From Desulfurococcales archaeon (GTDB taxonomy: Archaea > Thermoproteota > Thermoprotei_A > Sulfolobales > Desulfurococcaceae), in contig JALVYU010000026.1 in assembly GCA_027022365.1 (NCBI GenBank), positions 480,001 to 544,000 on the forward strand: 64,000 nucleotides of DNA, written 5' to 3'. The notes beneath the pieces are model-generated. The model did no database searches. It had not been told where the DNA came from and saw only the letters and a program-made list of their open reading frames with translations. Positions 8,291-46,875 of the stretch are shown here, piece after piece. The translations under genes and the position numbers were made by a program. Every line of letters starts with the position of its first letter. The stretch's first letter is position 1.

Positions 8291-8294
8291 CCGA

Positions 8295-14353: not shown

Positions 14354-14357
14354 AAAA

Positions 14358-31184: not shown

Positions 31185-31186
31185 TT

Positions 31187-31459
31187 TTAAGCACCCTTCT
31201 TCTTTGGTTTAACCGTATCGACCGCTACGTATCTGTAAGCAATTGTTTCGCCCGCTGTGGGGCTTTTCCTAATAATTCTGATAATATCCCCTGGCCGAGC
31301 CCCTATGGCTTTGACAACAGGATCATTGATACTGATCCAGGGGAGTTGGTAAGGCTTTATGTTTAATTTTTTCAAAACCTCTAAAGCTTCTTCAGGAGAT
31401 AATATTTCATGTTTGGGGACAAGCTCGTGTTCCAAAATATTAGGTTGTTTCTTTGACAT
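31187..31459 (-). CDS. rpoH: RNA polymerase subunit H
   Basis: HELVPKH, LP.I...DP, R.SPTAG. Confidence 0.96.
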
Positions 31460-31592
31460 AACTTGATCCCTACCTCGATAACATTATCTACTCCCAAATC
31501 AAGCACGTAGTTCCTAAGGGGGGAGATTATAATACAGGGTCTTAAGCTTATCGTTCGGGAATAATATTATAGTTTAACATATCTGATAAAAA

Positions 31593-31934
<342 letters not shown>

Positions 31935-31952
31935 GTTTTCACCAGGTAAATA

Positions 31953-32052
31953 ATTTCTATTTTAGAAATATTTAAAGTTTCCGAACAACCCCATATCACA
32001 ACCATATCACAGATTATATTACAAACGCTTTATAAGTTTCTAAAATAGAAAT
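31953..32052. promoter_or_regulatory. divergent promoters with palindromic operators and ATATCAC repeats
   Basis: TTTCTA-N3-TAGAAA at 31954 and 32037 directly downstream of each TATA; ATATCAC at 31993 and 32004, ATATTAC at 32016. Confidence 0.7.
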
Positions 32053-32072
32053 AGAGAAACCAGGGTGAGAAC

Positions 32073-32549
32073 ATGGCCCAAGCCGTGTCTCAGGTTGTTC
32101 CTAAAAGCGGTTTTTTGGAGATGGTTGAGCGTGAGTTGACTGTTCTTGAGAATATGTATAGGGATCTTGTTCGTGAGGCGGAAGAAGTACTCGATAGGCT
32201 GTATTATGTCAGCTACTACGGTTATGATGACGGCGAAATTAGGATCCGTCGCAACGGGTTGAACAGGCTAGTAGTCGTTATCAATGGCAAGGAGATAGAG
32301 TATGGAGATTTCAGCGGAACATGGACTCTAGTAGGAGATCCAAGGATAGTCGTGGAAAACAAGGACAGGCTTCTACGATTGGCGAGGGCATTGAACAGCT
32401 TCCATACAGAGATGCAGAAGATACAATCGATAATAGACAGGGCGGAAGCACTTGCAACAAAGCTAGGCAAACCAGAGATCCTAGACAACGTACTCCAGAA
32501 GATAACAAAGTACCTTGAAGAACCAAGGATCCTAGGTGATGGAATATGA
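32073..32549 (+). CDS. provirus hypothetical protein, coiled-coil
   Basis: GGTGA RBS; first gene of a tightly packed operon. Confidence 0.8.
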   Translation: MAQAVSQVVPKSGFLEMVERELTVLENMYRDLVREAEEVLDRLYYVSYYGYDDGEIRIRRNGLNRLVVVINGKEIEYGDFSGTWTLVGDPRIVVENKDRLLRLARALNSFHTEMQKIQSIIDRAEALATKLGKPEILDNVLQKITKYLEEPRILGDGI

Positions 32550-32665
32550 TCGTATGCTATTCTAGCAAAGAGTCAAGCTATAGATGTGTCGAGGTAGATG
32601 ACGAACCCGAGGAATTCTTGATCTACAATCCAAGAACAGGACAATGGGAAGAAGTCAAAGCATAA
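32546..32665 (+). CDS. provirus small protein (39 aa, not in track)
   Basis: MIVCYSSKESSYRCVEVDDEPEEFLIYNPRTGQWEEVKA; ATGA overlap, GGTGA RBS. Confidence 0.65.
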   Translation: MIVCYSSKESSYRCVEVDDEPEEFLIYNPRTGQWEEVKA

Positions 32666-32675
32666 GGGTGATAGG

Positions 32676-32939
32676 ATGAGCCTTGTTCTACGCTATAAGC
32701 GTAAATACTATATTACTCTCAGCGGAACAGCGAGAAGGCTATTATTGAAGCATAACAGGAAATTCTATGAAGAGTACATGGATCTTCTCGAGGAAATGTA
32801 TGAAGTAAGGGCTGTCAACGGCGAAGAAGCAAAACAACTATTCCTAAACGAGTACAAAGCGATAGCAAGCCTATACAGGAAAGCAGCAGAGATCACAAAA
32901 CTACCATTGGAACAAGTCCTAAGAGCCTACCCAGGGTGA
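32676..32939 (+). CDS. provirus hypothetical protein
   Basis: GGTGA RBS, operon packing. Confidence 0.75.
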   Translation: MSLVLRYKRKYYITLSGTARRLLLKHNRKFYEEYMDLLEEMYEVRAVNGEEAKQLFLNEYKAIASLYRKAAEITKLPLEQVLRAYPG

Positions 32940-32943
32940 TCCG

Positions 32944-33180
32944 GTGATGTTGGCTGATTGTAGAAAATGTGTATACTTCATTCCTATAGAGAAGTTTGAG
33001 GAATATGATATGCTAGATCTGCTCGATGAAGCAGAGAGCCTTAAACATCATGGAATCACGATTCTAGGGTGGTGCAACAGATTCCACAGATTCGTGAAAT
33101 ACTATAAGGGCAAATGCAGGGGCTTCGCCAGAAAAGCGATCAAGCAACATACACTAAAGGAATACGGGGTGATCTATTAA
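32944..33180 (+). CDS. provirus Cys-rich, putative Zn-binding protein
   Basis: CRKCVYF...GWC...CRGF. Confidence 0.7.
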   Translation: MMLADCRKCVYFIPIEKFEEYDMLDLLDEAESLKHHGITILGWCNRFHRFVKYYKGKCRGFARKAIKQHTLKEYGVIY

Positions 33181-33404
33181 TGGTTTATCTTTCACGTAAT
33201 ACTACTACACATAGTATATTGAGCTATCTCGATGATTTATATGATGCTTGTAGAGAACAAGACTATGATATAAGCATTATTGATGATGTAATAAAATATG
33301 ACTACTCTGTAAAACGAGCAATAGCTAATATATGTAGAATATATGAATACTACCTTCCCGTTCCAAACGATGATTTCTTATTAATATGGGAAAATCATTG
33401 GTGA
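33180..33404 (+). CDS. provirus hypothetical protein
   Basis: TAATG overlap start (MVYLSRN...) preferred over track start 33114. Confidence 0.65.
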   Translation: MVYLSRNTTTHSILSYLDDLYDACREQDYDISIIDDVIKYDYSVKRAIANICRIYEYYLPVPNDDFLLIWENHW

Positions 33405-33408
33405 TCTT

Positions 33409-33936
33409 GTGATGTCTGCTCCTATTAGTAAACAATATAATAGAGAAACGGAGCCAAACACTCATAATAATGTATTATATAATAGGGAGCGTGTAAACAG
33501 TTTACAGTATGTAAACATTTCTCTTAATAATAAATTAGATAATAAGACATTGCTAGGATTAACAGATACTATTAGTGTAAGAGTGCCGCTTCTTTACAAG
33601 TTGTTATTTAAGGAGATAAGAAAGGATCCTTTGAAATGGAGAGTGTTCAAGGAATCTCTTCTATCATTGATAAAGAGTATTAGTGAGAGCAATATCGAGC
33701 CAAGCACTAATGTGAATATTCAGTTATCACCAACGATAGTTATAAACAATGTCAAGGTCAAGGCAGAAGCAAAAACAGAGATCAGCATTGATGTTGATAG
33801 TGTTCTTAACGAGATTGCTAAGCTTAAACGCTTGATTAGTAACTGGGCTAGGATGAGGAAGATACCGCCAGCAGCCTACGATACTGCTTCTAATTTGATC
33901 AAAGCAATCGAGAAACAACTCAAAGCGGTGAATTGA
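33409..33936 (+). CDS. provirus protein with RHH-like segment
   Basis: TISVRVPLLYKLLF strand-helix pattern; Asn-rich repetitive N-terminus. Confidence 0.6.
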   Translation: MMSAPISKQYNRETEPNTHNNVLYNRERVNSLQYVNISLNNKLDNKTLLGLTDTISVRVPLLYKLLFKEIRKDPLKWRVFKESLLSLIKSISESNIEPSTNVNIQLSPTIVINNVKVKAEAKTEISIDVDSVLNEIAKLKRLISNWARMRKIPPAAYDTASNLIKAIEKQLKAVN

Positions 33937-33939
33937 GCC

Positions 33940-34494
33940 ATGAAATATGTTATTATTAAGCCTCGTGCCGGCGGAACAGCGTTCTGGAGAAGCATGATCC
34001 ATTGCTTAAGGGAAGGAGAACATAGAGTTCTACGGTTGAAGCTACATAGCAGGGCTTACTTGTATTTATTCCCAATAGAATCCGTCGATCTCGAGCAAAT
34101 TATTACATGGAACTATCTAGTTGCGGATGTAGAGAAGATTAGCTGGGAGTGGGACGGGCGGGAAGAAATCATCATCGAGAAAAAGAAAATAAAGTATATT
34201 GATGAATGGGTATTTGAAAACGAGTCCTGGATCATAAAAGTTAGAACAAGGGACAACGAGTACACAGTCTATCCTAATAGGAGAATAGAGCAGCTTACCG
34301 GTCAGAATCAGAGCCTGAGTAATAGCAGCTATAGAACAGTATCCGATACTGATGTTCCAGGTGTACAGTCTCAAACACTAAGGTCCTCGAGAACCACAGA
34401 ATCAAACTCTGAGATAGGACCTGATACGGTATCTGATTCTGAACCAGGTCCTGGATCTGCAGAATCCGAGACCGAACACCTGGATAGGTGGTGA
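33940..34494 (+). CDS. provirus hypothetical protein with S/T/acidic tail
   Basis: GGTGA RBS, operon packing. Confidence 0.7.
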   Translation: MKYVIIKPRAGGTAFWRSMIHCLREGEHRVLRLKLHSRAYLYLFPIESVDLEQIITWNYLVADVEKISWEWDGREEIIIEKKKIKYIDEWVFENESWIIKVRTRDNEYTVYPNRRIEQLTGQNQSLSNSSYRTVSDTDVPGVQSQTLRSSRTTESNSEIGPDTVSDSEPGPGSAESETEHLDRW

Positions 34495-34498
34495 ACTA

Positions 34499-35032
34499 AT
34501 GAGCTCGGTTAAGGCTAAGCGTTTGAAACAGGAATTCCGTAGCAAGTGGCGTGATGGCGTTATCCGTGAATGGATTGTTAAGCAGCTGCTAGACCTGATA
34601 TTCCTACAGAAGAAGCTACCATATAGGATCCTATGGACTGGTGTAGGGGCTGGAAACGCTGAGCATGTAGATGAAAACTATGATTCACCATTAAACGCCT
34701 TCGACCTGGTTATAGTTAATGAAAACATGAAGATACTAGCATACCTAGAAGTAACGGGTACAAATGATCTCTGCAGGGGAGAAGAACTATGTATTGGTGC
34801 CTGGAAGCTCTTCAAGGCTGAGCGCTTCAATGTTCAGGATAAGGTATGGTATATCCATGTATTGAGTAGCAAGATCCCTATCAGGGTAATTAGTTATGCT
34901 AGGCTGAAGAAGATAAGTAGCTTCAGAGTACTACAGGAAACAAGCCTAGTACATGGAAAATTCTATTGTTCACCTGTAAACAAGTGGGGTTCGATCAGCG
35001 ATCTAATAAGATGGCTCAGGGTGAGAAAATGA
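34499..35032 (+). CDS. putative PD-(D/E)xK-fold nuclease
   Basis: REWIV helix, FDLVI...AYLEVTG, W-K-L motif; canonical Lys absent. Confidence 0.45.
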   Translation: MSSVKAKRLKQEFRSKWRDGVIREWIVKQLLDLIFLQKKLPYRILWTGVGAGNAEHVDENYDSPLNAFDLVIVNENMKILAYLEVTGTNDLCRGEELCIGAWKLFKAERFNVQDKVWYIHVLSSKIPIRVISYARLKKISSFRVLQETSLVHGKFYCSPVNKWGSISDLIRWLRVRK

Positions 35033-35268
35033 TAACGCAGAAGAAAGTAGTTGAAGCAGTCAATGAATTCAATAGAATAAGCAATCACACGATCAGAAAA
35101 TACATATACGAGCTGATGGAACTACTCGATGACCATGAATTACTAACAATAATAATGAATAATGTGAAAGACTTTGGAATAAGGAAAAAAGCATACGAGA
35201 TACTACAGAAACGCATTAAACAAGTTAATAATAATGGCTTGGAACATGACTATGCTGTAAAACACTAA
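35029..35268 (+). CDS. provirus hypothetical protein
   Basis: ATGA overlap start MITQKKVVEAV. Confidence 0.6.
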   Translation: MITQKKVVEAVNEFNRISNHTIRKYIYELMELLDDHELLTIIMNNVKDFGIRKKAYEILQKRIKQVNNNGLEHDYAVKH

Positions 35269-35463
35269 TAGTTTCTTATCCATACTAAAATAAAGATAAA
35301 CACCCAGGCCTATCTTAAACAATAGAAGCAAAAACCAGTTATGCAACAAGAGATTAACTACAGGATTAAGCTCTCTGGCCCCACTTCTAATAGCTAAGTA
35401 AGTAGTTAAAACATCTAGAAGCTGTAATCCTACAATATATATGAGTAAGAGTTTATTCTTCAT
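35203..35463 (-). CDS. DUF5658-like small membrane protein
   Basis: LLDVLTTYLAI..GA.ELNP motif, 3 TM segments; common in archaeal mobile elements. Confidence 0.75.
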   Translation of the reverse strand: MKNKLLLIYIVGLQLLDVLTTYLAIRSGARELNPVVNLLLHNWFLLLLFKIGLGVYLYFSMDKKLLVFYSIVMFQAIIINLFNAFL

Positions 35464-36256
35464 AGAAAGCTCTCCACTTTAGTTCTTGTTTAAGCTTCTT
35501 CCACTCCTCATAGATGTAATCCATTATTTTACTCGGGCCTATTTCACGAGAAGCCATTATCAGTTTAGTGTATAGGTTTAGGTAAGCATTTCTTATCTTC
35601 TCGTATTCATTATAGTTAGGGGTTCTCAGCACAATGTGATCTACATATATGTTTGCACTATCCCAGTAGAATTTACCCCATTCCGTATATCTTTCTCTCC
35701 TAACTTGTATCTCTGCAATGCTCTGGGGAGTCTTATGGTTAGATGTCCCGTTCCTTATCATTCTTACTCTGAACTTATAGAGATTACCATTATTCTTGAT
35801 GTTTCGTGGTAAACTATACTCGCTAGTCATAGTCATTAGCACAGCTCCGATATTAACTCTTAGCGTCTCAAACGCTCCACGAATACCGATACTCATAGGA
35901 TGCCATGAAGTCCTTTTCAACAGCTCCATCCAAATACCCGCATCATCCCAGATAAGAATGGGTATCCATATATTGTTTCTCTGCAAATAATCAACGGCTT
36001 GTTGAAAATCAAAGGGAGTAAACACTATAAACTTGAGAACTTGATCCCAATCTCGGATAAACTCGTAAGCCACTTTCATAGCATAAATACTCTTGCCCGC
36101 ACCAGTCTTACCATAGATCCCAACTATTGTACCACTATTATAGGTCTTTATCTCGATAAACAAGAGCCTACTAAGGTTCTTTCTAGGCTTAGCAATGTTT
36201 AAACTAGGTAAGGGTATGGGGGTACCCCCCTCAATATATGTCAATTTTTCTACCAT
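35453..36256 (-). CDS. P-loop ATPase, fusellovirus B251-like
   Basis: GKTGAGKS.YA.KVA, IPILIWDDAGIW, RNG....TP.S.A.I match SSV1 B251 as recalled. Confidence 0.8.
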   Translation of the reverse strand: MVEKLTYIEGGTPIPLPSLNIAKPRKNLSRLLFIEIKTYNSGTIVGIYGKTGAGKSIYAMKVAYEFIRDWDQVLKFIVFTPFDFQQAVDYLQRNNIWIPILIWDDAGIWMELLKRTSWHPMSIGIRGAFETLRVNIGAVLMTMTSEYSLPRNIKNNGNLYKFRVRMIRNGTSNHKTPQSIAEIQVRRERYTEWGKFYWDSANIYVDHIVLRTPNYNEYEKIRNAYLNLYTKLIMASREIGPSKIMDYIYEEWKKLKQELKWRAFYEE

Positions 36257-36687
36257 TCACCTTCTCCCTCAAATGTTTCTTGCCTACGCTTTATACGTGA
36301 AAGACTAATGTTTTGGAGTATTCTCCAGGCTCTGCCGCCTGCTATCGCTATGAGTTCTTTGACGCCCTTTCTCTTGTGTGCTCTCTTAAAGATGACATAG
36401 TTTCTAATGAAGTTGATTAGGATTGGGTCTGGTATTAGCTCGCTTATAGCCTTAAGCGTTGCCAGTGCTTTTACTTCTCCGCCCGATAATTCCGTAAGAG
36501 TATACTTGGCTAAGCCCCTTGGATTAACCAACAACTCCACTGCTTTCTTCTGTCCCGCTGCGAGATCTCCTTCGAGGCCTTCCCAGAAGTCTTCTTCCTC
36601 ATCATCGAGTATCGGTAGACTAAAGTCCTGTATATCCAAGTCATCGGCTTCTTCTTTTTCTTTCCTTTTCTTCTTAGACTTAGCCAT
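36250..36687 (-). CDS. fusellovirus A154-like protein
   Basis: Acidic N-region, AVELLVNP...LSGGEV, K.KG.KELI; directly upstream of B251-like gene as in SSV1/pSSVx. Confidence 0.6.
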   Translation of the reverse strand: MAKSKKKRKEKEEADDLDIQDFSLPILDDEEEDFWEGLEGDLAAGQKKAVELLVNPRGLAKYTLTELSGGEVKALATLKAISELIPDPILINFIRNYVIFKRAHKRKGVKELIAIAGGRAWRILQNISLSRIKRRQETFEGEGEW

Positions 36688-36688
36688 G

Positions 36689-36817
36689 TTATTCGCCCCA
36701 ATAATTACTCAACTCCTCATAGTCTCTCTCGTTAAGCTCTTCCCTCAATAGAAAATATTCTAGTAGAAAAGCCGCCTTTCCCAAGGCTTTAAGAATCATG
36801 AACCTATAATACGCCAT
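36689..36817 (-). CDS. provirus small protein (42 aa, not in track)
   Basis: MAYYRFMILKALGKAAFLLEYFLLREELNERDYEELSNYWGE; GGTGA RBS; fills operon gap. Confidence 0.6.
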   Translation of the reverse strand: MAYYRFMILKALGKAAFLLEYFLLREELNERDYEELSNYWGE

Positions 36818-36822
36818 TTTAT

Positions 36823-37368
36823 TCACCTTATGATAATGCTATGACCGAGCAATGGTAAAACGAAGAAGATCAACAATATGATGATAACCATTCCAGTAAA
36901 CATATATAATATAGCTTCTCCCTTTGAGACGGTGATCTTTCCTAGCAATTTATGTATTGAGTGGCTAGCAATGTAGTTGTACAGAGTTCTTGGATTCAAT
37001 ACTACAGGGTTGAGTTTTCCGGTTTTAACATCTTTAGGCGGATCCTCAAACTGGTATAATGCATTAGTATTAGCGTCAAGTATGTAGAGCTGATAAGTGT
37101 TTCTACCCATTCTCAGGAGATATGGTTCCTTCTTCTCGACTCTATACAGCTTGTTCTTATCAACTATTATTGTCCCGTCCTCGAAAACCATAGCGTTTTT
37201 CTTCAACTCTATGATGTCGCCGTTTCTAATCATTACTACAGCTTTACCTATTTTCTTGATCTCGTTCTTGTTCATTGTTTTGCTCGGTAGTTGTGAATAC
37301 ATCACCTTAGCAATCGGATAGACAAGGATCAGCAATATCACTAGTAGGAAATACAGTATCCATTCCAT
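36823..37368 (-). CDS. membrane protein with N- and C-terminal TM helices, possibly SSV C166-like
   Basis: TM-soluble-TM topology; PY...MGR and LNP...KLLG segments (similarity from recall). Confidence 0.55.
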   Translation of the reverse strand: MEWILYFLLVILLILVYPIAKVMYSQLPSKTMNKNEIKKIGKAVVMIRNGDIIELKKNAMVFEDGTIIVDKNKLYRVEKKEPYLLRMGRNTYQLYILDANTNALYQFEDPPKDVKTGKLNPVVLNPRTLYNYIASHSIHKLLGKITVSKGEAILYMFTGMVIIILLIFFVLPLLGHSIIIR

Positions 37369-37475
37369 AAGATCACCAAGAACTAGTTTATCTCAGCCCT
37401 TATAAGAGCCGAAAAGCTCACGTAAGCTATCATCAGCTTTTCACAGGATATATTTTTAATTCCAAGTTCTTCTCG

Positions 37476-38666
37476 GTGAGAGAGTGTATGAAGCACTACT
37501 TACCATTATTACTGTTACTGCTTATCTTGCCTGGTATACTAGTAACTGGTTCTACAACTACAACTCAAATAGGTCCAGGCGTAGATACTCAAAGAAGTGA
37601 TGCCCAATGGTACTATTTCGGACCGATGACATACGATATGTATCCATTCGGAGACATCTACATAGAGTTCCATGTTCCAGCTAATGGAACATATACATTC
37701 TATATTGGGTGGGGTACGGTTGAGCAGCATGCAAGCGGATATATTCAGTTCGAGCTAACGGATAATAATAACAATTACATTAAAGATACAACAATAACAT
37801 TCAGCGATGGAGTAGAGTTCCACACAGAACAACTATTCAGCGTTTATTTAACCAAGGGAACGTATAGGCTATGGATAAAGCCCCATTTCACAGACGGATC
37901 CCTTATGCTGCTAAGCTATGACCCTTCAACAGATCCCAGCAACAGCTACTACAATCATCCACAAAATGGCTGGATCCAGCTAAGGGATCTAGCCTGGTAT
38001 GCACTATATGATAATAGTGCAGGATCCGGAAGTACAGGCACAACCAGTATCCCAGAACCCAGGGCAGTTTATAATCCGAACGACATATGGAGCGACTCTA
38101 ACTATGTATATGTAAAGATCACTATTTGGAACTGGAAAAACGGGACAACAATAACAATCTATAGATACGATGAGATCCTAGACACATATACAGATAAACA
38201 ACAATTCATAGTTCAAAATACTGGTAAACAAACAATAATCGCAAAATTCAAGCGGATCAATGGTGGAGAATACTCTGGTGATTACATCTATATCCAGGGC
38301 TATGATCTCAACGGAAACTATTATAGTATGAGACTGCAGCGCTTTAACATAACAGTAGCCCCTAAGGGATGGCTAGATGAAATCAAGCAATGGTTCCAGG
38401 CACTATACAGTTATGCAGGCCTAGCTTTTGCAACCGTTAAAGCAATAGTACCGTATGCTGGGATATTCTATATGTTAGCATTGACTGGAGTATTATTTCA
38501 ATGTATAAAAGAACTAAGCATCACGCCATTATTCGATTTCTTCTACAAGCAGTATACTATGCTTGTAAGCCTGGCCAATTTTGCCATAAAAATAGCCCAG
38601 ATAATATATAATGGTTTTAAGGCATTAGCACAAGCCATTATCTCAATTATTACTAGCCTAGTCTAA
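37476..38666 (+). CDS. secreted beta-rich protein with C-terminal membrane domain; putative adsorption/tip protein
   Basis: Signal peptide, Y/T/N-rich beta domains, GSGSTGTTS linker, hydrophobic/amphipathic C-terminus. Confidence 0.65.
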   Translation: MRECMKHYLPLLLLLLILPGILVTGSTTTTQIGPGVDTQRSDAQWYYFGPMTYDMYPFGDIYIEFHVPANGTYTFYIGWGTVEQHASGYIQFELTDNNNNYIKDTTITFSDGVEFHTEQLFSVYLTKGTYRLWIKPHFTDGSLMLLSYDPSTDPSNSYYNHPQNGWIQLRDLAWYALYDNSAGSGSTGTTSIPEPRAVYNPNDIWSDSNYVYVKITIWNWKNGTTITIYRYDEILDTYTDKQQFIVQNTGKQTIIAKFKRINGGEYSGDYIYIQGYDLNGNYYSMRLQRFNITVAPKGWLDEIKQWFQALYSYAGLAFATVKAIVPYAGIFYMLALTGVLFQCIKELSITPLFDFFYKQYTMLVSLANFAIKIAQIIYNGFKALAQAIISIITSLV

Positions 38667-38767
38667 AACATATCCCACAATAATTTTAACAACCTGTATG
38701 TTAAATAGCCTAAGCCTATGCATGATATGACTACTATTATAACCATAACGGGATCATCATACCACAT
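38663..38767 (-). CDS. 34-aa single-TM protein (not in track), minor-coat-like
   Basis: MWYDDPVMVIIVVISCIGLGYLTYRLLKLLWDMF; TAATG coupling to upstream ORF. Confidence 0.65.
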   Translation of the reverse strand: MWYDDPVMVIIVVISCIGLGYLTYRLLKLLWDMF

Positions 38768-39066
38768 TATCGGTACACCTGGATAGGCTCCTCGATAACC
38801 GTTATGCCTAGTTCTCTCAGCTTATTTTTCAAAATAGAAATGCGGTTATCGTTAGCCCCATCTACTTGCACAACAAGTTTATACTTGTTAGGCGGATAAA
38901 TATCGGATACGCTGAATAACCATGTTGATAGCTTTACAAGCAGTAAGCCCGGCAATCGGTTCCTAAACCCCTGTGATACTTCGATCTTTCCTGTCGATCT
39001 ATTTATTAAATAGGCTTTGAGAATAATCGGTGGGTTTACTGGTTTACCGCCCACACGGATCACCAA
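38767..39066 (-). CDS. provirus hypothetical protein
   Basis: ORF with upstream TATA, coupled to the 34-aa ORF. Confidence 0.65.
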   Translation of the reverse strand: MVIRVGGKPVNPPIILKAYLINRSTGKIEVSQGFRNRLPGLLLVKLSTWLFSVSDIYPPNKYKLVVQVDGANDNRISILKNKLRELGITVIEEPIQVYR

Positions 39067-39184
39067 GTTTAGCCTATATAAATAGCCGATATAAAAGCTG
39101 AAAAGCTTATGATAGCTTGGCTGAGCATTGTATAGTTTCTCGTGTTATATATACTCCCAACCGAAACTATTCTAGGTGATATAA

Positions 39185-39424
39185 ATGTTTGGAAGAGTGA
39201 AGGCTAAATTATCTGGCCTTAGGCTTCGAGCAAAGATGATAAAGTACATGGCAGTAATAGCCTTAACACTTGGAGAAACAACTACTATTGACAGCACACA
39301 GTTCACTAACATGATAAACAGCATGCTACCGCTCATACTAGGAATGATAGGTATAGCATTACCGCTAATCTTCATTAAGTACATTATGCGTTTCCTCGAG
39401 AAAATCCTCAGCGGATTCGGCTAA
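39185..39424 (+). CDS. putative major coat protein precursor (79 aa)
   Basis: Basic leader, hydrophobic VIALTLG, polar/acidic ETTTIDST, TM helix, basic amphipathic end; GGTGA RBS. Confidence 0.6.
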   Translation: MFGRVKAKLSGLRLRAKMIKYMAVIALTLGETTTIDSTQFTNMINSMLPLILGMIGIALPLIFIKYIMRFLEKILSGFG

Positions 39425-39463
39425 CGCTAACATCACAGTAGCAATATTAATAGGTGATCAGGA

Positions 39464-40135
39464 ATGCAAACAAGCAAGCTAATACCATTTGTTTTCATAA
39501 TTGTCCTAACACTTGGCATTACTTGGGGAGCTTATCAAACACTTGAACAGATAAGTATCCCCTATACAACGTTTAGATCAACTGGTATAACCTGGTATCC
39601 GTTAAGCAAAGCATATGACACGAATCATTTGCTAATAGGTATTCAGCCAGTCAATATACAGTTTAACAGTACAGCAACACAGAAGAAAATTGTAATAGAG
39701 ATTGCTGGATCTGATGCTTCAAACCATCTCGACCTGGCGTTCTATGATAATGGCATAATAGATATTGTTGGAACAACATCATCGGGAGCAACAAAATTAG
39801 CTGATACATCAAGCAGCGGCGTAAAATGGCAGGATACAAACTTTATCATCGTTGAGATAACAGGTACGACTGTAAAGGTAGAGACGGATAACGGAACCGT
39901 ATTGGCAAGTGTTACATGGGATAACATGCCCTCGACAATAGAGCAGATCGGCGGTAGTGCCGGAGTAGATTCGTTAACTGGCGGAACGGTTTATGTTGCT
40001 ATACTATATGATCCATACCAGTCAATAACTAGCTCGATGACATCAATGTTTCCACTGGTTGCTGTGATGATAGGTATTGCAATACCACTACTGTTCCTGA
40101 AGATGATCATGAGATTCCTAAACAAGATATTCTAG
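39464..40135 (+). CDS. coat-protein paralog with inserted beta-sandwich (ConA/LamG-like) domain
   Basis: C-terminal 29 aa are 20/29 identical to the 79-aa protein; shared LTLG near N-terminus. Confidence 0.7.
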   Translation: MQTSKLIPFVFIIVLTLGITWGAYQTLEQISIPYTTFRSTGITWYPLSKAYDTNHLLIGIQPVNIQFNSTATQKKIVIEIAGSDASNHLDLAFYDNGIIDIVGTTSSGATKLADTSSSGVKWQDTNFIIVEITGTTVKVETDNGTVLASVTWDNMPSTIEQIGGSAGVDSLTGGTVYVAILYDPYQSITSSMTSMFPLVAVMIGIAIPLLFLKMIMRFLNKIF

Positions 40136-40172
40136 TCTTTTTTCTTCACTAACATTATTATGGGGGTACGCA

Positions 40173-41150
40173 TTGAAGTATTTGCCTGTATTTTTGATGA
40201 TACTCATAGTTTTATCGGGTCTAGGAATAACTTTTCTGAATAATAGTCCCAATTACAGCTATAGCTTGGATAAGAATGATTTGAGGCATTTCCTTGAATC
40301 GCAATATATACCAAGCATTGGATTGCTCAGAGCAGCTACAACTACATATCCTGATAACATTACAATATATATTTCCAACGATAATGTCTTGGCTGCGAGA
40401 GCCTTAGCCGTTCTCGGATCACCATTAGCTTCAAAGGTCTTAACAATTCTAAATAATAATTTCAGCGGTGGATGGAATGGCAAAATAGATATACTGCTTG
40501 GTAGGGATATACCGGACAACTTCTACTCTAGCTATAACGAGCTTGTTAAAGAAGATGACGGTTACAGAATTGTCTGGGAAAAACTAAATACTTCTATCAT
40601 CATAACTGACTGGTATAACTACGCTGATCTCCTAGTATATCATGCCCTGGACAGACTATTATGGGGTTCTAGGCCTGAGGCCGAGAAATCGTTTCTTAAT
40701 TTAACCAAAATGTGGGATGGATATGGTTTCCGGGATAAGCCTACAAGCGAAACCGGTGTCTATGCAGTCTACAAGTGCGCTCTTTTCATTTATCTCTATA
40801 GAGCGCTAGAAGCAGCAGGTTCTAACGTTATCTACCGTTATAGAGATATCTATGAGAAATGCCTAGAAATAATAGCAAAAGCACAGGACGCCATTAAAGG
40901 CGGTATTCATACAGATTATCGTATAGTTAATGGAAGAATTATTATCCAAGGAGACATGAATACTGAGACGACCAGCATGGTAGTATTAGCATTGTACTCA
41001 AACTATCCAGTCGTGATAGGATCCCATGCTAAATCGTCTCAGAGACTAGTGCCTGGATATGTCTATAGTTTTGGATATAATATTTTGGCGTGGACATTAT
41101 CATTTGTTGTATTTGGGGCAGTTACTAGATTCTTAAGGAAGCTGATGTAA
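40173..41150 (+). CDS. secreted alpha-helical (alpha/alpha barrel-like) protein with C-terminal anchor
   Basis: Signal peptide; WDG.G, GG...Y, NTETT motifs; ends TM + RFLRKLM. Confidence 0.65.
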   Translation: MKYLPVFLMILIVLSGLGITFLNNSPNYSYSLDKNDLRHFLESQYIPSIGLLRAATTTYPDNITIYISNDNVLAARALAVLGSPLASKVLTILNNNFSGGWNGKIDILLGRDIPDNFYSSYNELVKEDDGYRIVWEKLNTSIIITDWYNYADLLVYHALDRLLWGSRPEAEKSFLNLTKMWDGYGFRDKPTSETGVYAVYKCALFIYLYRALEAAGSNVIYRYRDIYEKCLEIIAKAQDAIKGGIHTDYRIVNGRIIIQGDMNTETTSMVVLALYSNYPVVIGSHAKSSQRLVPGYVYSFGYNILAWTLSFVVFGAVTRFLRKLM

Positions 41151-41210
41151 GCATTCATAAGCTTTTCGCCAAAAATATGTTCCGCTCCTACCCCTTTCCT
41201 AGGTGGGATA

Positions 41211-42809
41211 ATGCATAAGATCCTAGCCATAGTCCTAATAGGCCTACTGCTCCTGAGCCTACCACTGCAAATAATGATGACAAACGCAAGCAGTACGCCA
41301 TCGCTATCATCGATTAAAAACGCTGTAAAACAAGCCTTGCATTATATTCTTAACATTAAACGTCAACTAGGAACATGGTATGTAATTAGCGAGTATCCAG
41401 CATTACCCATAGTAGTCCATGATGATGACGTATATGTTTATGGTTCATGGCATCATGATATATGGTTTATACCAGGATATTGGTACAACAAAGATGGATT
41501 AAGCTTCACAGGTAAAGTTAGCGGTGGTTCAATAACAACGACTGAATCAACCAGTTATATATCGACAACATATACATACTATATAGACATAATCTACAGC
41601 ACATCATATCATGAATATCCCTTGGCAAAACTCAAGGTTGAGGAAATAAGAACGTACTATTATGGTTCTCATAGTTATGACTCAAAAGTAAAGATCAGCG
41701 TAGAAGATGTTGACACAGATACAAATATACAGAACGCAGACCTATATGTTGGCGGCATCTATTTGGGTAGGCTTGGCGAAGCCTCGATATTTGAGACTAG
41801 TATACCCACAGTATTACCTGCAATGAGGACATCCGTTAGACACGTCGATATGCTCGCTCCCCTAGTCCTTAATGCTCTGAAAACAGATACGACAATAATG
41901 CATATGATAGCTCAATTCGTTAATGACACAATATCATATGTATGGGAAGGAAACCCGCCGCCTACACATGTTTATCTTGGACAATACCCAGACTATAGAC
42001 TGTACTATATATACGACATATACATGCCCATGCTCACCGGACTTGAATACATGGTTAATATCAAACAGCCTAACGGCGATCACTTCTGGGATGCTAAATG
42101 GTTCAGTTATGGTCTAGGATATGATAGAATACGAGACATGTTCAAAGTCAACGGATATATTGAATCGAATTACCCGGCTTATCCATATAGAAGCAAACTT
42201 GTTGGCGGGGCAACGGCTAGCGGCGCTCTACACTTGAATGGCGGCGATCTATTTCTATTTGCGGTGAGCAAAATTAATGATCCATTATATTATGCTTGGT
42301 GGGGACTGTACTATTGTAGCCAAGGAAAATACAATGATGCAGTAAATGAATGGAACAAGATAGTTAGTCATTGGGATGGAAACGGAATATATCTATCCGG
42401 AGAGCGAGGATATAGTACAGTAAGACTTGCGGCCGCTATAGCCTTAGGTTCAATCCTTGCGGGGATGGGTAAAATATCTTGGGACAAGATCGACCAAATG
42501 GTAAATGTCCTACTACAGCTCCAATGGACAGGGATAGGACATTATTCGCCTGATGGCTCAACAGTATACACAATTGTAAAGCCTGATCATATTGGTGGAT
42601 TCCTAGTAAGCTATGGGCCTATAGGAAGCTATGGGTTTGTCCCGTTCAGGCCTAGACTGATCGAAGATATACTAGATTATGCAAGCTCGCCACCAGAGTA
42701 CGGTGGTCCGCTACCCACTAACGCTGAAACAACATTATTGTCAATGATAGCATTAATGCAGTATGCTTACTGGAGATATGACGTGACTCCGGCCGAGCTT
42801 TTACAATAA
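41211..42809 (+). CDS. large secreted protein, C-terminal half paralogous to 40173-41150
   Basis: Signal peptide; WDGNG, GGFLVSY, NAETT motifs; no C-terminal anchor. Confidence 0.7.
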   Translation: MHKILAIVLIGLLLLSLPLQIMMTNASSTPSLSSIKNAVKQALHYILNIKRQLGTWYVISEYPALPIVVHDDDVYVYGSWHHDIWFIPGYWYNKDGLSFTGKVSGGSITTTESTSYISTTYTYYIDIIYSTSYHEYPLAKLKVEEIRTYYYGSHSYDSKVKISVEDVDTDTNIQNADLYVGGIYLGRLGEASIFETSIPTVLPAMRTSVRHVDMLAPLVLNALKTDTTIMHMIAQFVNDTISYVWEGNPPPTHVYLGQYPDYRLYYIYDIYMPMLTGLEYMVNIKQPNGDHFWDAKWFSYGLGYDRIRDMFKVNGYIESNYPAYPYRSKLVGGATASGALHLNGGDLFLFAVSKINDPLYYAWWGLYYCSQGKYNDAVNEWNKIVSHWDGNGIYLSGERGYSTVRLAAAIALGSILAGMGKISWDKIDQMVNVLLQLQWTGIGHYSPDGSTVYTIVKPDHIGGFLVSYGPIGSYGFVPFRPRLIEDILDYASSPPEYGGPLPTNAETTLLSMIALMQYAYWRYDVTPAELLQ

Positions 42810-42865
42810 TCGAGCCAAAAATATCATATAATCTTTTTTCTTAAATTAGGAACCTGTAGGGGTGA

Positions 42866-43141
42866 ATGGCTTTGGAAACCGAACATTATATCGCTATTGG
42901 TTTTTTATCAACAGCATTACTACCATTCATCCTATTATTGTTCCCCATTGCTTATAGGATTGGGTGGTATTGTTTTAATTACTTCTATGTGGTCTTACCA
43001 TTGACTTATCTTGTGGCCTTCATGCTTTGGAGATGGAAAAAGAAGATATTATCAACAATAACAGCAGTCTTAGGCACAAGTCTGACAATCTACGGATTCT
43101 TATTATATTTAATAGCTCTAGCCCTTATCTCGGAATACTAG
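42866..43141 (+). CDS. small 3-TM membrane protein (possible immunity factor)
   Basis: Three hydrophobic segments; directly follows the secreted pair. Confidence 0.65.
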   Translation: MALETEHYIAIGFLSTALLPFILLLFPIAYRIGWYCFNYFYVVLPLTYLVAFMLWRWKKKILSTITAVLGTSLTIYGFLLYLIALALISEY

Positions 43142-43164
43142 AATCCTTCTTAAGCTCATATTAG

Positions 43165-43959
43165 TTGTTTTTAGCTGACTGTGTCATCTATGTTTTTTAC
43201 TATCTATATTCTCTGGTGGGTAGCATGAATCTGAAGTTTCTAGCTCTAGGCATTATTGTTGTAGCGTTTATCAGCGTATCTGTAGGAGCAACAGCTAGTA
43301 CTGTTAGCATTAGTTTTACAAAGGATTTGTCAAAACTAGCGATCGATCATGAGGTATGGTATAGTACAGAGTTCAATGTATGTGATTCTATTCCCGCAAC
43401 TTGGGTGCATCCCGGCACATGGGAGATAACATATAGTGATATAGATGTCAAGAGTGGCTGGGTACAGGTAGATGTTTACACGCCTGATCTCAGCAACTAC
43501 TTGTTCAGCATAGAGTTCAAAGACAACAAGCAACTAGTACTTTCATACTATGCCAAAGATACATTGTATCATAGACTAGTACTTGGTAACTGGACAGCGG
43601 GCAACAAGGTAGTAGCAATATACAATGCTAGACAATTAATAATAAAGCTATACAATAACGATAAGCTCATTAATTCAACAACAATAGACGACATAGCTGT
43701 TAGGATAAAGATCTCGAAGACAGGAATATGCCTCGTTGCGACAGATATACCTACATGCCATGCAAGCGGGACGATGACGGTCAAGATAACATACATAAAA
43801 AACACGCAAAACACGCAACAAAATACACAACAGGTTCAAGAAGCAGTTAAACAGACAACGAAGACGGTTACGAACACAGCGGTTCAAACGATTACGCCAC
43901 TAGCAGGTCTAGGAATGCTGTTCGCTTTTCTGAGGAAACTCGAGGGACTTGCAAGGTGA
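43165..43959 (+). CDS. secreted beta-sandwich protein with T/Q linker and C-terminal anchor (likely start ATG 43225)
   Basis: Paralog of 39464-40135; NTQ repeats; ends TM + AFLRKL. Confidence 0.7.
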   Translation: MFLADCVIYVFYYLYSLVGSMNLKFLALGIIVVAFISVSVGATASTVSISFTKDLSKLAIDHEVWYSTEFNVCDSIPATWVHPGTWEITYSDIDVKSGWVQVDVYTPDLSNYLFSIEFKDNKQLVLSYYAKDTLYHRLVLGNWTAGNKVVAIYNARQLIIKLYNNDKLINSTTIDDIAVRIKISKTGICLVATDIPTCHASGTMTVKITYIKNTQNTQQNTQQVQEAVKQTTKTVTNTAVQTITPLAGLGMLFAFLRKLEGLAR

Positions 43960-44875
43960 TCTAGTGATGACTAGCAAACGCAAGTATAAATACAAAAGAG
44001 TCTACTTCGGCGAGGATAGCGTATTCAAGGCCGTCAAGGATATTGGTAAGCCAGGCGTCAATACTCGTAAAGAGTTTGTCAAGCTATGCCTATCACAGCT
44101 AGCGGACCTAGCAGACTTGAAGACCAAGGATAAGAAGACTGGAAGAACAATAAAGTGGACTAAACAGCTATGGGCAAGAAGAACATTCATTCTCAGACAG
44201 CTTAATAAGATAAAGAGATTCAGGCTTGGAAGACTAGTAGACTATATCGACCGTGTAGGACGGGCTTTCCTTGACAAGAAGATAGGCCCGGCACAGCTAG
44301 CTGAGGCTCTGGATAAGATTGCTAAGAAGTATGGTGTAAGCGTGAAGGAAGCGAGAGAAATAGCGAAGAAAGTTACCCAGCAGAAGAAAGTACTAGTTAT
44401 CCTAATCAAGCATATTGACGGACACATCGAGAAAGTAGTATTCGGTAAAACAAGAAGGATATCAAAGAAGAAACTGAAGGCAGCTAAGAAACTAGGAGCA
44501 AGAGTAGCTAAGAAGCTGAGAAAGAAGTTTGACGAGGAAACAAAGCGTATAGCAGATTACTTGTGGAGCATGATACCAGAACGTTATAAGAGAAAACCAT
44601 TGCGAATATGGTACTATGTAATGGTTCTATGGCTAGCCTACTACATCAGGAAATACTCGAGAGAGAAAGGCCTGGACTGGAGAGCAATCGACTGGGCCTC
44701 AGAAATCGATTGGAAAGAAGGCTATAGACACGCTAAACACTTCATAGCAGAACTACTAAGGTCAGGGCTATCAAAATACGAGGACTGGACGAAGAAAGAC
44801 TTCGAGGAATACGATAAATACATAGAACAAATGATGCAATGGGAAAAAGAAAGACTAGCAGAAGCAATTGCTTAA
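43949..44875 (+). CDS. very basic protein, putative nucleic-acid-binding/core protein (likely start ATG 43967)
   Basis: K/R-rich throughout; C-terminal DW.AIDW..EIDW motif. Confidence 0.6.
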   Translation: MQGDLVMTSKRKYKYKRVYFGEDSVFKAVKDIGKPGVNTRKEFVKLCLSQLADLADLKTKDKKTGRTIKWTKQLWARRTFILRQLNKIKRFRLGRLVDYIDRVGRAFLDKKIGPAQLAEALDKIAKKYGVSVKEAREIAKKVTQQKKVLVILIKHIDGHIEKVVFGKTRRISKKKLKAAKKLGARVAKKLRKKFDEETKRIADYLWSMIPERYKRKPLRIWYYVMVLWLAYYIRKYSREKGLDWRAIDWASEIDWKEGYRHAKHFIAELLRSGLSKYEDWTKKDFEEYDKYIEQMMQWEKERLAEAIA

Positions 44876-44970
44876 TGAATACTTTTACCTAACTCTCTAG
44901 CTTATTTTTTAGAGTCTATTTTTGGCTCTAGGTTGTGTGCAAGTAGATATGTTTGCTTATATATTTATAT

Positions 44971-44987
44971 ATTTCTAGGATAGAAAT
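44971..44987. promoter_or_regulatory. third TTTCTA-N3-TAGAAA operator
   Basis: ATTTCTAGGATAGAAAT immediately after TATA (tttatata), upstream of wHTH gene. Confidence 0.7.
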
Positions 44988-44989
44988 AA

Positions 44990-45355
44990 TTGAGGCGAGA
45001 TATGATGAAAGAGACTAGGCTGAAAGTGTTAAATTCCTATCCAAGAAACTATTTAATGGGGATTATAGTGAGCATCGAAAAACAAGACATAGACATCATT
45101 GTGTTATATAAGCTTCTAAAGATAATCTATGAAAACCAAAACATATCGCTTACAGACTTATTCAAAAAGTATCGAGAAACCGAGGGAGTTAAAGTAAACT
45201 ACAATAAGGTAAAGAAGCATATCGAGTATGCAGCTCTAAAAGAGCTAGTAGAGATAAAGAAGGGAAAACCTACCAAGCTATCTATAACCAAAAAAGGAAT
45301 CGACTACATGTTCTTAATGAGCCGTGTCCTCAGCGTTCTCGGCGAACAGATCTAG
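44990..45355 (+). CDS. winged-helix DNA-binding regulator
   Basis: LTDLF...NYNKVKKHIEY....LV......LSITKKG wHTH pattern. Confidence 0.75.
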   Translation: MRRDMMKETRLKVLNSYPRNYLMGIIVSIEKQDIDIIVLYKLLKIIYENQNISLTDLFKKYRETEGVKVNYNKVKKHIEYAALKELVEIKKGKPTKLSITKKGIDYMFLMSRVLSVLGEQI

Positions 45356-46339
45356 GAGATACAGATAGGGCTTGAACGCTTCATAGTACTTCTGGCTTAT
45401 TAGCTTTATATGCTTAATATAGTGTTCCACCTGCACGGTTTCTAAGCGTCCTTGAAGAAGATCCTTTTCGCCATCGTCGAGATACCCAGACGTTATGGCT
45501 ATCCAGGCCTTGCGGAACAACCCTATGTTTATTCCGAACTTGTGTCTTACATGGTCTTTCCAGTTCTCTGTCAATAGGATTGGATGGTATTCGTTGACGA
45601 GCTGGAAAAGCTTTTCCGGAATTAGCGTGATATAGGCTTTCTTCTTAACTCTATCATAATTTAGTACTACTAGGTAGACGCCGTTTAGCTTGATTTTTCT
45701 TAGTGTATTCCAGTTATCTAGCATGTACTTGATTTCCGTGCTTCTTAGTCCGGTAAAGAAGGCTATTATTATTGGTAGCTTGTACTTGGTGTTTCTGTTG
45801 ACTATCTTCTTTATGGTTTCAAGGGCTTGGTCTATGATGCTTATTGCTTCGCCTGTTTCCTTTATCTCGAACTCTAGTATTCTCTTAGTTATTTCTTCGA
45901 TTTTCCTAGGCGGCATGTATTTTCTTAGTAGCTTTGTATTGATTTCGAGATTAATACCGTACATTAACAGAGCGTAATCACGTAAAGCTGGTACGGCTTC
46001 TAGCACTCCCCTTGCTCTGCGATAGTTTAGCTGCTTCATCATAAGCGGGTTCTCAATGATCTTTAGCAGATACTTGCTGCTTGTATACACGTAGATAGCG
46101 TGGCCCCTGGAGCTGTAACGTTGCTTTAACCATGCTAGAAAGTTTGGATCATTCACAATCCTTACCAAAATTTCGGGATGAGAAACTATAGGATTAGAAC
46201 CATTATGGGACGCTTGGTTCTGTGATATCACAGGTATATCACGGGTGATATCACTCTGTGATATAGGCTGTGATATGCCGTGATATGATTCGATCGGATG
46301 CCAACCGAGCGCTCTTCCAGGCTGAGCTACCGGCCCACG
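45314..46339 (-). CDS. integrase C-terminal fragment int(C), tyrosine recombinase
   Basis: FTGLRSTE, KKKAY, FRK, LQGR, EHY catalytic pattern; begins with translated att; joins int(N) in frame to give 403 aa. Confidence 0.9.
   Translation of the reverse strand, partial: RGPVAQPGRALGWHPIESYHGISQPISQSDITRDIPVISQNQASHNGSNPIVSHPEILVRIVNDPNFLAWLKQRYSSRGHAIYVYTSSKYLLKIIENPLMMKQLNYRRARGVLEAVPALRDYALLMYGINLEINTKLLRKYMPPRKIEEITKRILEFEIKETGEAISIIDQALETIKKIVNRNTKYKLPIIIAFFTGLRSTEIKYMLDNWNTLRKIKLNGVYLVVLNYDRVKKKAYITLIPEKLFQLVNEYHPILLTENWKDHVRHKFGINIGLFRKAWIAITSGYLDDGEKDLLQGRLETVQVEHYIKHIKLISQKYYEAFKPYLYLLDLFAENAEDTAH
46222..46286. repeat. GTGATAT/ATATCAC array next to att inside int(C)
   Basis: GTGATAT at 46222, 46245, 46258, 46270, 46280; ATATCAC at 46225, 46236, 46248. 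Confidence 0.85.
46294..46339. repeat. att direct repeat (46 bp), right copy (tRNA-Ala 5' half)
   Basis: Identical to 31703-31748. Confidence 0.97.
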
Positions 46340-46370
46340 TACCCCGGAGAAAACACTATTCACAACCAGC

Positions 46371-46384
46371 TTATAAAGTTTTAA
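46371..46384 (-). promoter_or_regulatory. original host tRNA-Ala BRE/TATA
   Basis: TTAAAACTTTATAA, 35 nt upstream of the half-tRNA, outside the element. Confidence 0.8.
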
Positions 46385-46477
46385 TTTTTTCCCTGGTACT
46401 CTGTATCTCTTCTATTAGCGATAAATTACTATATAATGACGTAATATTATGTATTAGTACATGATAATATTAATAAG

Positions 46478-46777: not shown

Positions 46778-46875
46778 TGGTTTTTCCTCGATTATTGCTG
46801 GCTCATAGTTTTTCTATCTCCATTATAATATATATCTAGGAATCCATATAGTCTGCTCAGTCCTAACCACGGCGG

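Follow-up and report, generated by a model that had tools for sequence, protein, structure and literature searches.

In a 64,000-nt stretch of contig JALVYU010000026.1 from a Desulfurococcales archaeon (GCA_027022365.1, positions 480,001 to 544,000; hereafter the window), the interval 37476–39424 was found to lie inside a provirus and is probably the particle-protein gene block of an element of the APOV1 type (Aeropyrum pernix ovoid virus 1; NC_028256, labelled L001 in our comparisons), APOV1 being a Betaguttavirus of the family Guttaviridae. The provirus covers approximately 31703–46346 (14.6 kb) and is low in GC content. This kind of virus is already known from APOV1; what is new here is another APOV1-like provirus.

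A sequence-only reading of the interval had singled out three open reading frames (ORFs), for proteins of 396, 34 and 79 amino acids (aa), as an inovirus-like structural set and had proposed an extruded rod or filament virion. All three ORFs were present, at 37476–38666 (+), 38663–38767 (−; the reading had given no strand) and 39185–39424 (+), and all three lie within the provirus. The proposed virion was not supported, as the genes are syntenic homologues of those of APOV1, an enveloped ovoid with double-stranded DNA (dsDNA), and no inovirus families were found. Because APOV1 virions are ovoid and enveloped and contain dsDNA, an extruded filament is unsupported; because the flagged genes belong to an APOV1-related particle-protein block, their likeness to the coat proteins of filamentous phages is one of layout only. 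Virion shape is known for APOV1 alone, and an ovoid particle for the present element, which is known only from its genes, would be an analogy.

Gene block shared with APOV1

The block consists of the following genes.

37476–38666 (+), 396-aa candidate spike/adhesin, counterpart of APOV1 orf16 (tblastn, residues 297–370, E = 1.5e-9)
38663–38767 (−), 34-aa protein with a single transmembrane (TM) segment, 50% identical to APOV1 7679–7780 (tblastn, E = 8e-10)
38767–39066 (−), 99-aa basic soluble protein, counterpart of APOV1 orf13 (tblastn, E = 8e-11)
39185–39424 (+), 79-aa procoat-like precursor and candidate small virion membrane protein, counterpart of APOV1 orf12 (tblastn, E = 2.5e-9)
39464–40135 (+), 223-aa type-I membrane protein, counterpart of APOV1 orf11 (blastp, linked through the related element L037)

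When 27 ORFs of the window were compared by tblastn with the APOV1 genome and the matches were read against its annotation, nine of them matched in the same order with E < 1e-8. APOV1 and six other related elements all had, in the corresponding place, a counterpart of each of the three flagged ORFs at the protein level, which indicates that the ORF set is more than a product of chance. The order of the genes was the same in all eight elements compared, this provirus included, and ran from the 396-aa-like gene through the 34-aa-like, 99-aa-like and 79-aa-like genes to the 223-aa-like gene where the contig continues, the whole adjoining a block that contains an ATPase gene. In the window, this adjoining block is as follows.

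35203–35463 (−), 86-aa DUF5658 membrane protein, counterpart of APOV1 orf20 (PF18902, E = 4.6e-08; tblastn, E = 5e-10)
35453–36256 (−), 267-aa DnaA-like AAA+ ATPase, counterpart of APOV1 orf19 and fusellovirus B251 (phrog_5484; tblastn, E = 4e-88)
36250–36687 (−), conserved 145-aa protein, counterpart of APOV1 orf18 (tblastn, 44.6% identity, E = 1.7e-34)
36823–37368 (−), conserved 181-aa protein, counterpart of APOV1 orf17 (tblastn, 37% identity, E = 5.7e-22)

The ATPase matched phrog_5484, annotated as "DnaA-like replication initiation protein", with E = 7.7e-37. Among the 41 records that it matched in all, APOV1 came first (51.9% identity over 90% of the query, E = 8e-81) and was followed by the B251 homologues of fuselloviruses (24–31% identity). 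The 181-aa protein displayed hydrophobic segments at both ends (residues 1–28 and 147–181) upon hydropathy analysis.

Searches of 351 genomes of the class showed how far the block extends. The ATPase matched 46 of them at E <= 1e-5, and up to 20 kb of the surroundings of six of the better matches were compared. With a profile built on the 79-aa family, 16 genomes gave matches at E <= 1e-3 and 10 did so at E <= 1e-18; all 10 strong matches were situated within approximately 4.5 kb of a match to the APOV1-type ATPase, and in one genome (G054) the two matches were separated by 4186 nt, which is the APOV1 spacing. A pattern search of genome contigs based on the ATPase returned 60 matches, none of which was confirmed. 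Against 1.84 billion representative proteins, the 79-aa profile found only 21 at E <= 1e-3; by this measure the family appears to be narrow. The provirus and its relatives, the latter being the 10 genomes with strong matches, define a conserved block of five genes, which encode a spike, the 34-aa protein, a basic 99-aa protein, a small protein of procoat-like layout and a type-I paralogue.

The 79-aa procoat-like protein

In similarity searches, the 79-aa protein matched only APOV1 meaningfully (32.2% identity over 99% of its length, E = 4e-4); a Vibrio phage record with E = 8 was at chance level. Hydropathy was calculated by the method of Kyte and Doolittle with a 19-residue window and a threshold of 1.6. 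One TM-grade segment was found, at residues 43–71, and the hydrophobic stretch of the leader remained below the threshold; the 34-aa protein likewise had a single TM-grade segment, as the sequence-only reading had expected of both. The putative layout is a leader (residues 1–30) and a mature part (residues 31–79) with one TM helix.

Alignment of 12 members of the family strengthened this procoat layout. Eight positions were invariant (T32, D36, P49, P60, F63, I67, E72, and F78), all of them after residue 30, and G30 was nearly invariant. Before the junction, the leaders were 27–45 residues long, with a mean pairwise identity of 0.34 overall and 0.28 in the hydrophobic core. After it, 11 of the 12 sequences had 47–51 residues, and the identity rose to 0.59 overall and 0.65 in the TM segment. 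The twelfth sequence, from L036, was misaligned and had an Ala-His-Ala junction of its own. At position +1, Gln or Glu was present in 10 of the 12 sequences and Asn in P0002; with the Gln at L036's own junction counted, Gln or Glu was present in 11 of the 12. The LG/E site that the sequence-only reading had named for cleavage coincides with this conserved junction.

A regular-expression scan of the family gave 36 candidate junctions. The uncharged stretch before the junction was 8–15 residues long at 28 of these sites, longer than 15 residues at none, and 1–6 residues long at the other eight. Four of the eight (in L035, L036, P0011, and P0014) were short because the definition of the stretch breaks at Gln or His; among the remaining ones, P0015 has a truncated N-terminus, P0024 is short, and P0021 and position 87 of P0023 are not true sites. 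The residue at −3 was Leu, Thr, Val, Ala or Ser at 33 of the 36 sites, and the preceding 12 residues had a net positive charge at 31 of the 36.

Fused relatives were also found, with three units in P0016, P0019, and P0023 and two units in P0020. Each unit had a basic linker, a hydrophobic core of 8–12 residues, a small residue, Gln-Thr, a polar stretch, a TM segment and a tail. Internal cores of 8–12 residues are normal for a signal peptide and too short for a stable membrane span, so that the fused forms are candidate polyproteins cut at internal signal-peptidase sites. From cores of this length the 79-aa protein is likewise read as a procoat, and we infer that it is cleaved after G30. In the predicted product of 49 residues (5.5 kDa), a polar end rich in Thr would be followed by a single TM helix and a short tail with a net charge of approximately +2. 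In the three-unit fused forms, the third unit was a distinct paralogue.

An AlphaFold2 model made from the 12 sequences had a mean predicted local distance difference test score (pLDDT) of 70.7, with a helix of low confidence at residues 9–29 and another at residues 37–78 with a pLDDT of approximately 80–86. Searching the PDB with this model in Foldseek gave no match at E <= 0.001 and a single row at E = 9.3, and a wide VIA-align search returned generic helical hairpins only (Z <= 6.2). A complex prediction of four copies of residues 31–79, run without controls, scored 0.00 and counts neither way.

The 396-aa and 223-aa proteins

The start of the 396-aa ORF is more likely the ATG at 37488, giving 392 aa, because a 98%-identical homologue, P0026, starts there. 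P0026 is encoded on a contig of 14,802 nt, approximately the size of the provirus, which may represent the same virus assembled separately. The homologue on L032 (G130:C128), a 15.5-kb contig of a related element, was 62% identical.

Hydropathy analysis of the 396-aa protein revealed an N-terminal segment at residues 4–30 and a C-terminal one at residues 316–342. In an alignment of 16 family members, the ectodomain was variable and the C-terminal region of approximately 100 residues was kept, with P326, P351, F355, Y357, and Y360 invariant. AlphaFold2 (mean pLDDT 82.5) placed a helix at residues 8–22, approximately 19 beta strands in two blocks (residues 30–178 and 196–286), and two long C-terminal helices (residues 299–346 and 350–395). 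In this model, a signal peptide precedes two beta-sandwiches, and a helical hairpin, conserved in the family, forms the C-terminus, which agrees with the earlier description of the protein as a secreted beta protein with a C-terminal membrane region. In Foldseek, the beta part resembled the sugar-binding and immunoglobulin-like (Ig-like) modules of GH2 glycosidases (E of approximately 2e-5); minor tail proteins of phages or Fn3-like proteins were also matched, with E as low as 3e-7. In Pfam, nothing consistent was found for the family.

In the 223-aa protein, a hydrophobic segment lies at the N-terminus and an anchor at the C-terminus. The protein matched a 221-aa protein of L037 with E = 1e-7, which in turn matched APOV1 orf11 (46% identity, E = 3e-50). 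Its residues 189–223 were 60% identical to residues 41–75 of the 79-aa protein (blastp, E = 1.6e-10), and the profile of the 79-aa family matched the window at 40019–40141 with E = 1.2e-11. Given this common anchor, the 79-aa protein looks like the anchor module of the 223-aa protein without its ectodomain.

The 34-aa and 99-aa proteins

The 34-aa protein, which had been described as a hidden ORF, proved to be the product of a real conserved gene. It has one hydrophobic segment, at residues 4–28, and tblastn found counterparts in six of the seven related elements. The copy in the seventh, L036, was found by listing ORFs; it keeps the TM segment and the Y-L-G-Y-R-L motif and does not have the N-terminal W-Y-x-D-P motif. 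In an alignment of seven sequences, from which L036 was left out, nine positions were invariant (W2, Y3, D5, P6, V12, Y21, L22, Y24, and K28). The start codon of the 34-aa gene overlaps the stop codon of the 99-aa gene as TAATG. In APOV1, the conserved single-TM ORF of 34/35 aa is located at 7676–7783 (+), begins on the last base of orf13 (orf13-94) and has no CDS in the RefSeq annotation; the block therefore adds an unannotated conserved gene to APOV1.

The 99-aa protein (11.2 kDa, isoelectric point 10.1) resembles APOV1 orf13 (11.3 kDa, isoelectric point 9.9) and is a candidate DNA-associated internal protein. No Pfam family was matched consistently by its family, the best PDB profile match had E = 0.81, and the ESM Atlas gave no usable match.

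Weighing of the alternatives

Several points weigh against the reading of the 79-aa protein as a cleaved procoat within a particle-protein block. AlphaFold2 gave the whole precursor as two helices. In APOV1, the major capsid protein is of 10.5 kDa and is accompanied by two minor ones, and the gene is not named in the text of the profile (ICTV profile); orf12 is 9.3 kDa uncleaved and 5.4 kDa cleaved, and orf13 is 11.3 kDa. The 10.5-kDa band is closer in mass to uncleaved orf12 or to orf13 than to cleaved orf12 and, if it is orf12, better suits the uncleaved form. The length and basic character of the n-regions are unusual for ordinary signal peptides, and these regions could instead serve as arms that bind DNA in a hairpin that stays uncleaved. 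The residues at −1 and +1 are not independent evidence for the junction, because the regular expression itself demanded a small residue at −1 and Gln or Glu at +1. For the 396-aa protein, TM-scores of only about 0.2 in the structural matches indicate a generic adhesin-like fold and no family. Finally, cleavage, virion location and topology were all arrived at by inference.

An uncleaved hairpin of the VP1/VP3 type is the alternative that survives best. The 79-aa protein would then be a diverged homologue of the fusellovirus capsid proteins: both hydrophobic segments would lie in the shell, both basic ends would be turned towards the DNA, and the loop rich in Thr would be on the outside. Besides the two-helix model and the mass of the APOV1 capsid protein, this account has in its favour the DnaA-like ATPase, DUF5658 and SSV-type integrase that the element has in common with fuselloviruses. 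In VIA-align, 7ro2_A, the capsid protein of SMV1, also came tenth among generic helical hairpins (Z = 5.2, root-mean-square deviation 4.5, 76 residues aligned), but this Z lies within the noise that the tool states for helical models. Further, hhalign set the invariant P49 and P60, which are 11 residues apart and encoded within 39325–39390 of the window, on two prolines of the C-terminal helix of VP1/VP3 in three of three comparisons. With hhalign probabilities below 1%, this two-proline register is a lead and not a result: SSV1 VP3, SSV1 VP1 and an alignment of 23 VP1/VP3 sequences gave 0.85%, 0.61% and 0.68%, respectively, with E from 0.065 to 0.094 (0.084 for the last). PF06281 was matched by none of the 12 family members at E <= 10. 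Both helices are conserved in the 23 fusellovirus sequences (SSV1 being L038), with identities of 0.65 and 0.83; helix 1 there has approximately 22 residues, whereas the first segment of the 79-aa family has 8–15 residues, varies in length and shows an identity of 0.28. In addition, the internal cores of the fused relatives, at 8–12 residues, are too short to cross a membrane. The uncleaved hairpin is therefore disfavoured, and we consider it unlikely.

It is improbable that the small membrane proteins are accessory ones, acting in egress, as holins, in superinfection exclusion or in membrane remodelling, and not parts of the particle. Their placement in the virion is itself inferential, with the APOV1 major capsid gene unnamed in the profile as mentioned above, and three of the 12 members of the 79-aa family matched the PHROG holin family phrog_1129. 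These holin matches were not significant (best E = 0.016), however. One report describes APOV1 induction as occurring "with no apparent cell lysis" (PMC13612827), which counts against this alternative. Moreover, the genes lie in a conserved block, flanked by those of a spike-like protein and of a type-I paralogue with the same anchor, and were present in eight of eight elements compared.

In M13, the coat consists of pVIII, made with a leader and reduced to a single helix of approximately 50 residues with an acidic outer and a basic inner end; pVII and pIX are proteins of approximately 33 aa with one TM segment and no leader, and pIII is a secreted adhesin with a C-terminal anchor. In an inovirus-like virion, the cleaved helix would correspond to pVIII and cover the DNA, the 34-aa protein would correspond to pVII/pIX and close one end, the 396-aa protein would be a pIII-like tip adhesin, and the particle would be a rod or filament that is extruded across the membrane. 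The procoat-like layout with its conserved junction, the mature part modelled as one long helix, the conserved 34-aa single-TM protein, the type-I protein with a C-terminal membrane region and the release of APOV1 without apparent lysis, as quoted above, all fit such a virion. As the sequence-only reading had itself said, the likeness to the M13 proteins is architectural, and neither sequence nor profile similarity was detected. In Pfam and PHROGs, the 27 ORFs gave no match at E <= 0.01 to families of the Zot/pI ATPase, of inovirus coats or of rolling-circle Rep; at the same cut-off no family of single-stranded-DNA-binding proteins was matched, and the only ATPase was of the DnaA-like/B251 type. 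Phage_coatGP8 was touched by one of the 12 family members (E = 0.071), and the other weak Pfam matches of the family were His1_capsid (1 of 12, E = 0.084) and Flp/Fap pilin (2 of 12, E = 1.2). A search of PDB sequences with the profile gave no matches at E <= 10. With a mature tail of only about +2 net charge, genes of fusellovirus type (DnaA-like ATPase, DUF5658, SSV-type integrase) in place of inovirus ones, and a 55 x 75 nm enveloped ovoid with circular dsDNA as the nearest characterised relative, an inovirus-like virion is very improbable.

Provirus, integration site and distribution

The features of the integration site are as follows.

31593–31934 (−), int(N), 113-aa N-terminal fragment of a split SSV-type integrase, running through the tRNA gene and att
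31669–31745 (−), tRNA-Ala(GGC), integration target (ARAGORN), its 5′ part being the left att copy
31703–31755, attL, left copy of the 53-nt repeat
45314–46363 (−), int(C), 349-aa catalytic part of the SSV-type integrase (Phage_integr_3, phrog_5127)
46294–46346, attR, right copy of the 53-nt repeat

A repeat search found the 53-nt direct repeat in two copies, 96% identical and spaced 14591 bp apart. The int(C) product matched Pfam Phage_integr_3 ("Archaeal phage integrase") at the curated cut-off with 27 bits, as well as phrog_5127, and its gene starts 17 nt outside attR. Judging by the coordinates of the ORFs and the repeats, int(N) and int(C) read their att copies in one and the same frame, and a peptide derived from att was common to the two translations. 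With the att repeat in tRNA-Ala and this common peptide, the layout is that of an integrase gene of the SSV type that integration has split. The GC content was 0.38–0.40 over 32–46 kb, compared with 0.42–0.53 in the flanks, and was 39% for the element as a whole. The 14.6-kb provirus is integrated and apparently intact. Its host is an archaeon from hydrothermal vents and belongs to the order that also includes the host of APOV1.

The block was present in 11 DNA sequencing runs from three hydrothermal-vent metagenome studies, with no RNA run among the 11. For four runs, contigs were placed on 30500–47500 and their depths were compared; these are depths of contigs, not of reads, from mixed communities. 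The contigs broke at both att copies. In the run that is possibly the source of the assembly, those of the provirus (31720–46323) had depths of 294–317, compared with 169–202 for the flanks. The three other runs held variants of the provirus diverged by 2–5%, at or below the depth of the flanks (approximately 9 and 30 in X2, 28–34 and 133 in X6, and approximately 27 and 30 in X3, for variant and flank, respectively). These depths suggest no more than a variable presence of the element in populations of the host. Contig joints skipping approximately 14.6 kb were seen in four of four runs; their sides were only 21–27 nt long, in a tRNA region of multiple organisms, and they were not used.

Other genes of the provirus are as follows.

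34499–35032, 177-aa protein of a viral/archaeal nuclease family (PF12187 at the cut-off; phrog_9634, E = 1.6e-16)
40173–42809 (+), two proteins with N-terminal hydrophobic segments, of 325 aa and 532 aa (ORFs; hydropathy)
43949–44875 (+), 308-aa protein, counterpart of APOV1 orf15 (tblastn, E = 1.3e-13; phrog_38579, E = 5.6e-13)

The nuclease gene is situated in the left third of the provirus, which has no APOV1 counterpart, and its product was 82% identical to an ORF product in L032. The 325-aa and 532-aa proteins matched no family in Pfam or PHROGs and were kept in L035 at 65% and 45% identity, respectively; in their place APOV1 has orf10-284 and orf9-678. A glycoside hydrolase is listed for the APOV1 genome (ICTV profile). 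In L032, positions 257–2019 matched 12738–14500 at 98.5% (blastn), 12,481 nt apart, and no exact repeat of a test 100-mer was found. The contig could be a circular genome of approximately 12.5 kb assembled past its end, or tandem copies. Its 341-aa ORF at 7660–8685 (−) included the sole tblastn match to the window integrase (35% identity over 74 residues). Directly to the right of attR (46478–48655), host genes were found for an EncFtn/rubrerythrin-like protein (99 aa), a 399-aa homologue of Orc1/Cdc6 and endonuclease dU.

Proposed particle assembly

If the flagged interval is a particle-protein block of the APOV1 type, assembly would proceed as follows. The Sec system of the host would put the 79-aa, 223-aa and 396-aa proteins into the cell membrane, and signal peptidase would remove their leaders, cutting the 79-aa protein after its conserved small residue (…LG|ET…). 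In the product of approximately 49 residues, the outward end would be polar, Thr-rich and slightly acidic, a single TM helix would follow, and a short tail, basic or amphipathic, would face inward; the 34-aa protein would insert without a leader. The membrane carrying these four proteins would become the virion envelope, with the basic 99-aa protein and the inward tails touching the circular dsDNA. The 396-aa protein would serve as the host-binding spike, its variable ectodomain, similar to sugar-binding or Ig-like modules, being held by the conserved helical hairpin. By analogy to APOV1, the particles would be enveloped ovoids released without lysis, and no filaments would be extruded.

A wider proposal is that guttavirus particles are built from a pVIII-like subunit of approximately 49 residues, cut by the signal peptidase of the host from a procoat or, in some relatives, from a tandem polyprotein of two or three units, and that the TM helix of this subunit is of common ancestry with the C-terminal helix of VP1/VP3, at which the two-proline register hints. 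We put this forward as speculation that is rather doubtful. If it is true, the shell of the ovoid guttaviruses would represent the protein-lipid lattice of spindle-shaped and rod-shaped viruses in a form with one helix, and would be an archaeal dsDNA parallel to the coat pathway of inoviruses. For APOV1, which can be cultivated in Aeropyrum pernix, the prediction is that the particles contain a cleaved single-helix protein of approximately 5 kDa with Gln or Glu at the new N-terminus. Such a finding would reveal the construction of an enveloped, ovoid virus of archaea and its relationship to spindle-shaped viruses. The Guttaviridae have one sequenced member, and their profile mentions no particle structure (ICTV profile); in the literature searched, no other paper on guttavirus particle proteins turned up.

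Comparison with known systems

The 79-aa, 34-aa and 396-aa proteins are similar in layout to the pVIII procoat, pVII/pIX and pIII of inoviruses (M13/fd). The element differs from these phages in being a dsDNA provirus whose relative has an enveloped ovoid virion.

Pleolipoviruses are enveloped, non-lytic archaeal viruses whose particles consist mainly of a small membrane protein and a C-anchored spike bearing a signal peptide. Their likeness to the arrangement proposed here is a functional analogy only and homology is not claimed; their hosts (haloarchaea) and genome types are different.

SSV1 VP1 is processed before a Glu. The VP1/VP3 proteins of fuselloviruses (PF06281) and the SMV1 protein (7ro2) are, like the 79-aa family, small and very hydrophobic, with a Thr/Ser-rich stretch before the C-terminal helix, and VP1/VP3 and the 79-aa family both have two prolines 11 residues apart in that helix. 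The ATPase, DUF5658 and the integrase type are common to both groups. In contrast to VP1/VP3, the first segment in the window's family is short, variable and signal-like, and the profile comparison was not significant. APOV1 itself is placed in a gene-sharing module with fuselloviruses (ICTV profile).

APOV1 is an enveloped ovoid of 55 x 75 nm with circular dsDNA (ICTV profile). Its genome differs from the present element in several respects. The host of APOV1 belongs to another family of the order, and the integration target is tRNA-Leu there and tRNA-Ala here. The GC content is 56.5% in APOV1 and 39% in the provirus, the integrases show no tblastn similarity, and the ectodomains of the 396-aa and 223-aa proteins are diverged or replaced. 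The position of orf15 is not the same, and the left third of the provirus (32–35 kb) is without a counterpart in APOV1. The two are similar in size (13.8 kb and 14.6 kb), and both integrate into a tRNA gene with an SSV-type integrase, which is annotated in RefSeq as putative for APOV1. They also share gene order and orientation with protein-level homology, the identities being 52% for the ATPase, 45% for orf18, 37% for orf17, 50% for the 34-aa ORF, 32% for orf13, 32–33% for orf12 and 32% for the C-terminus of orf16.

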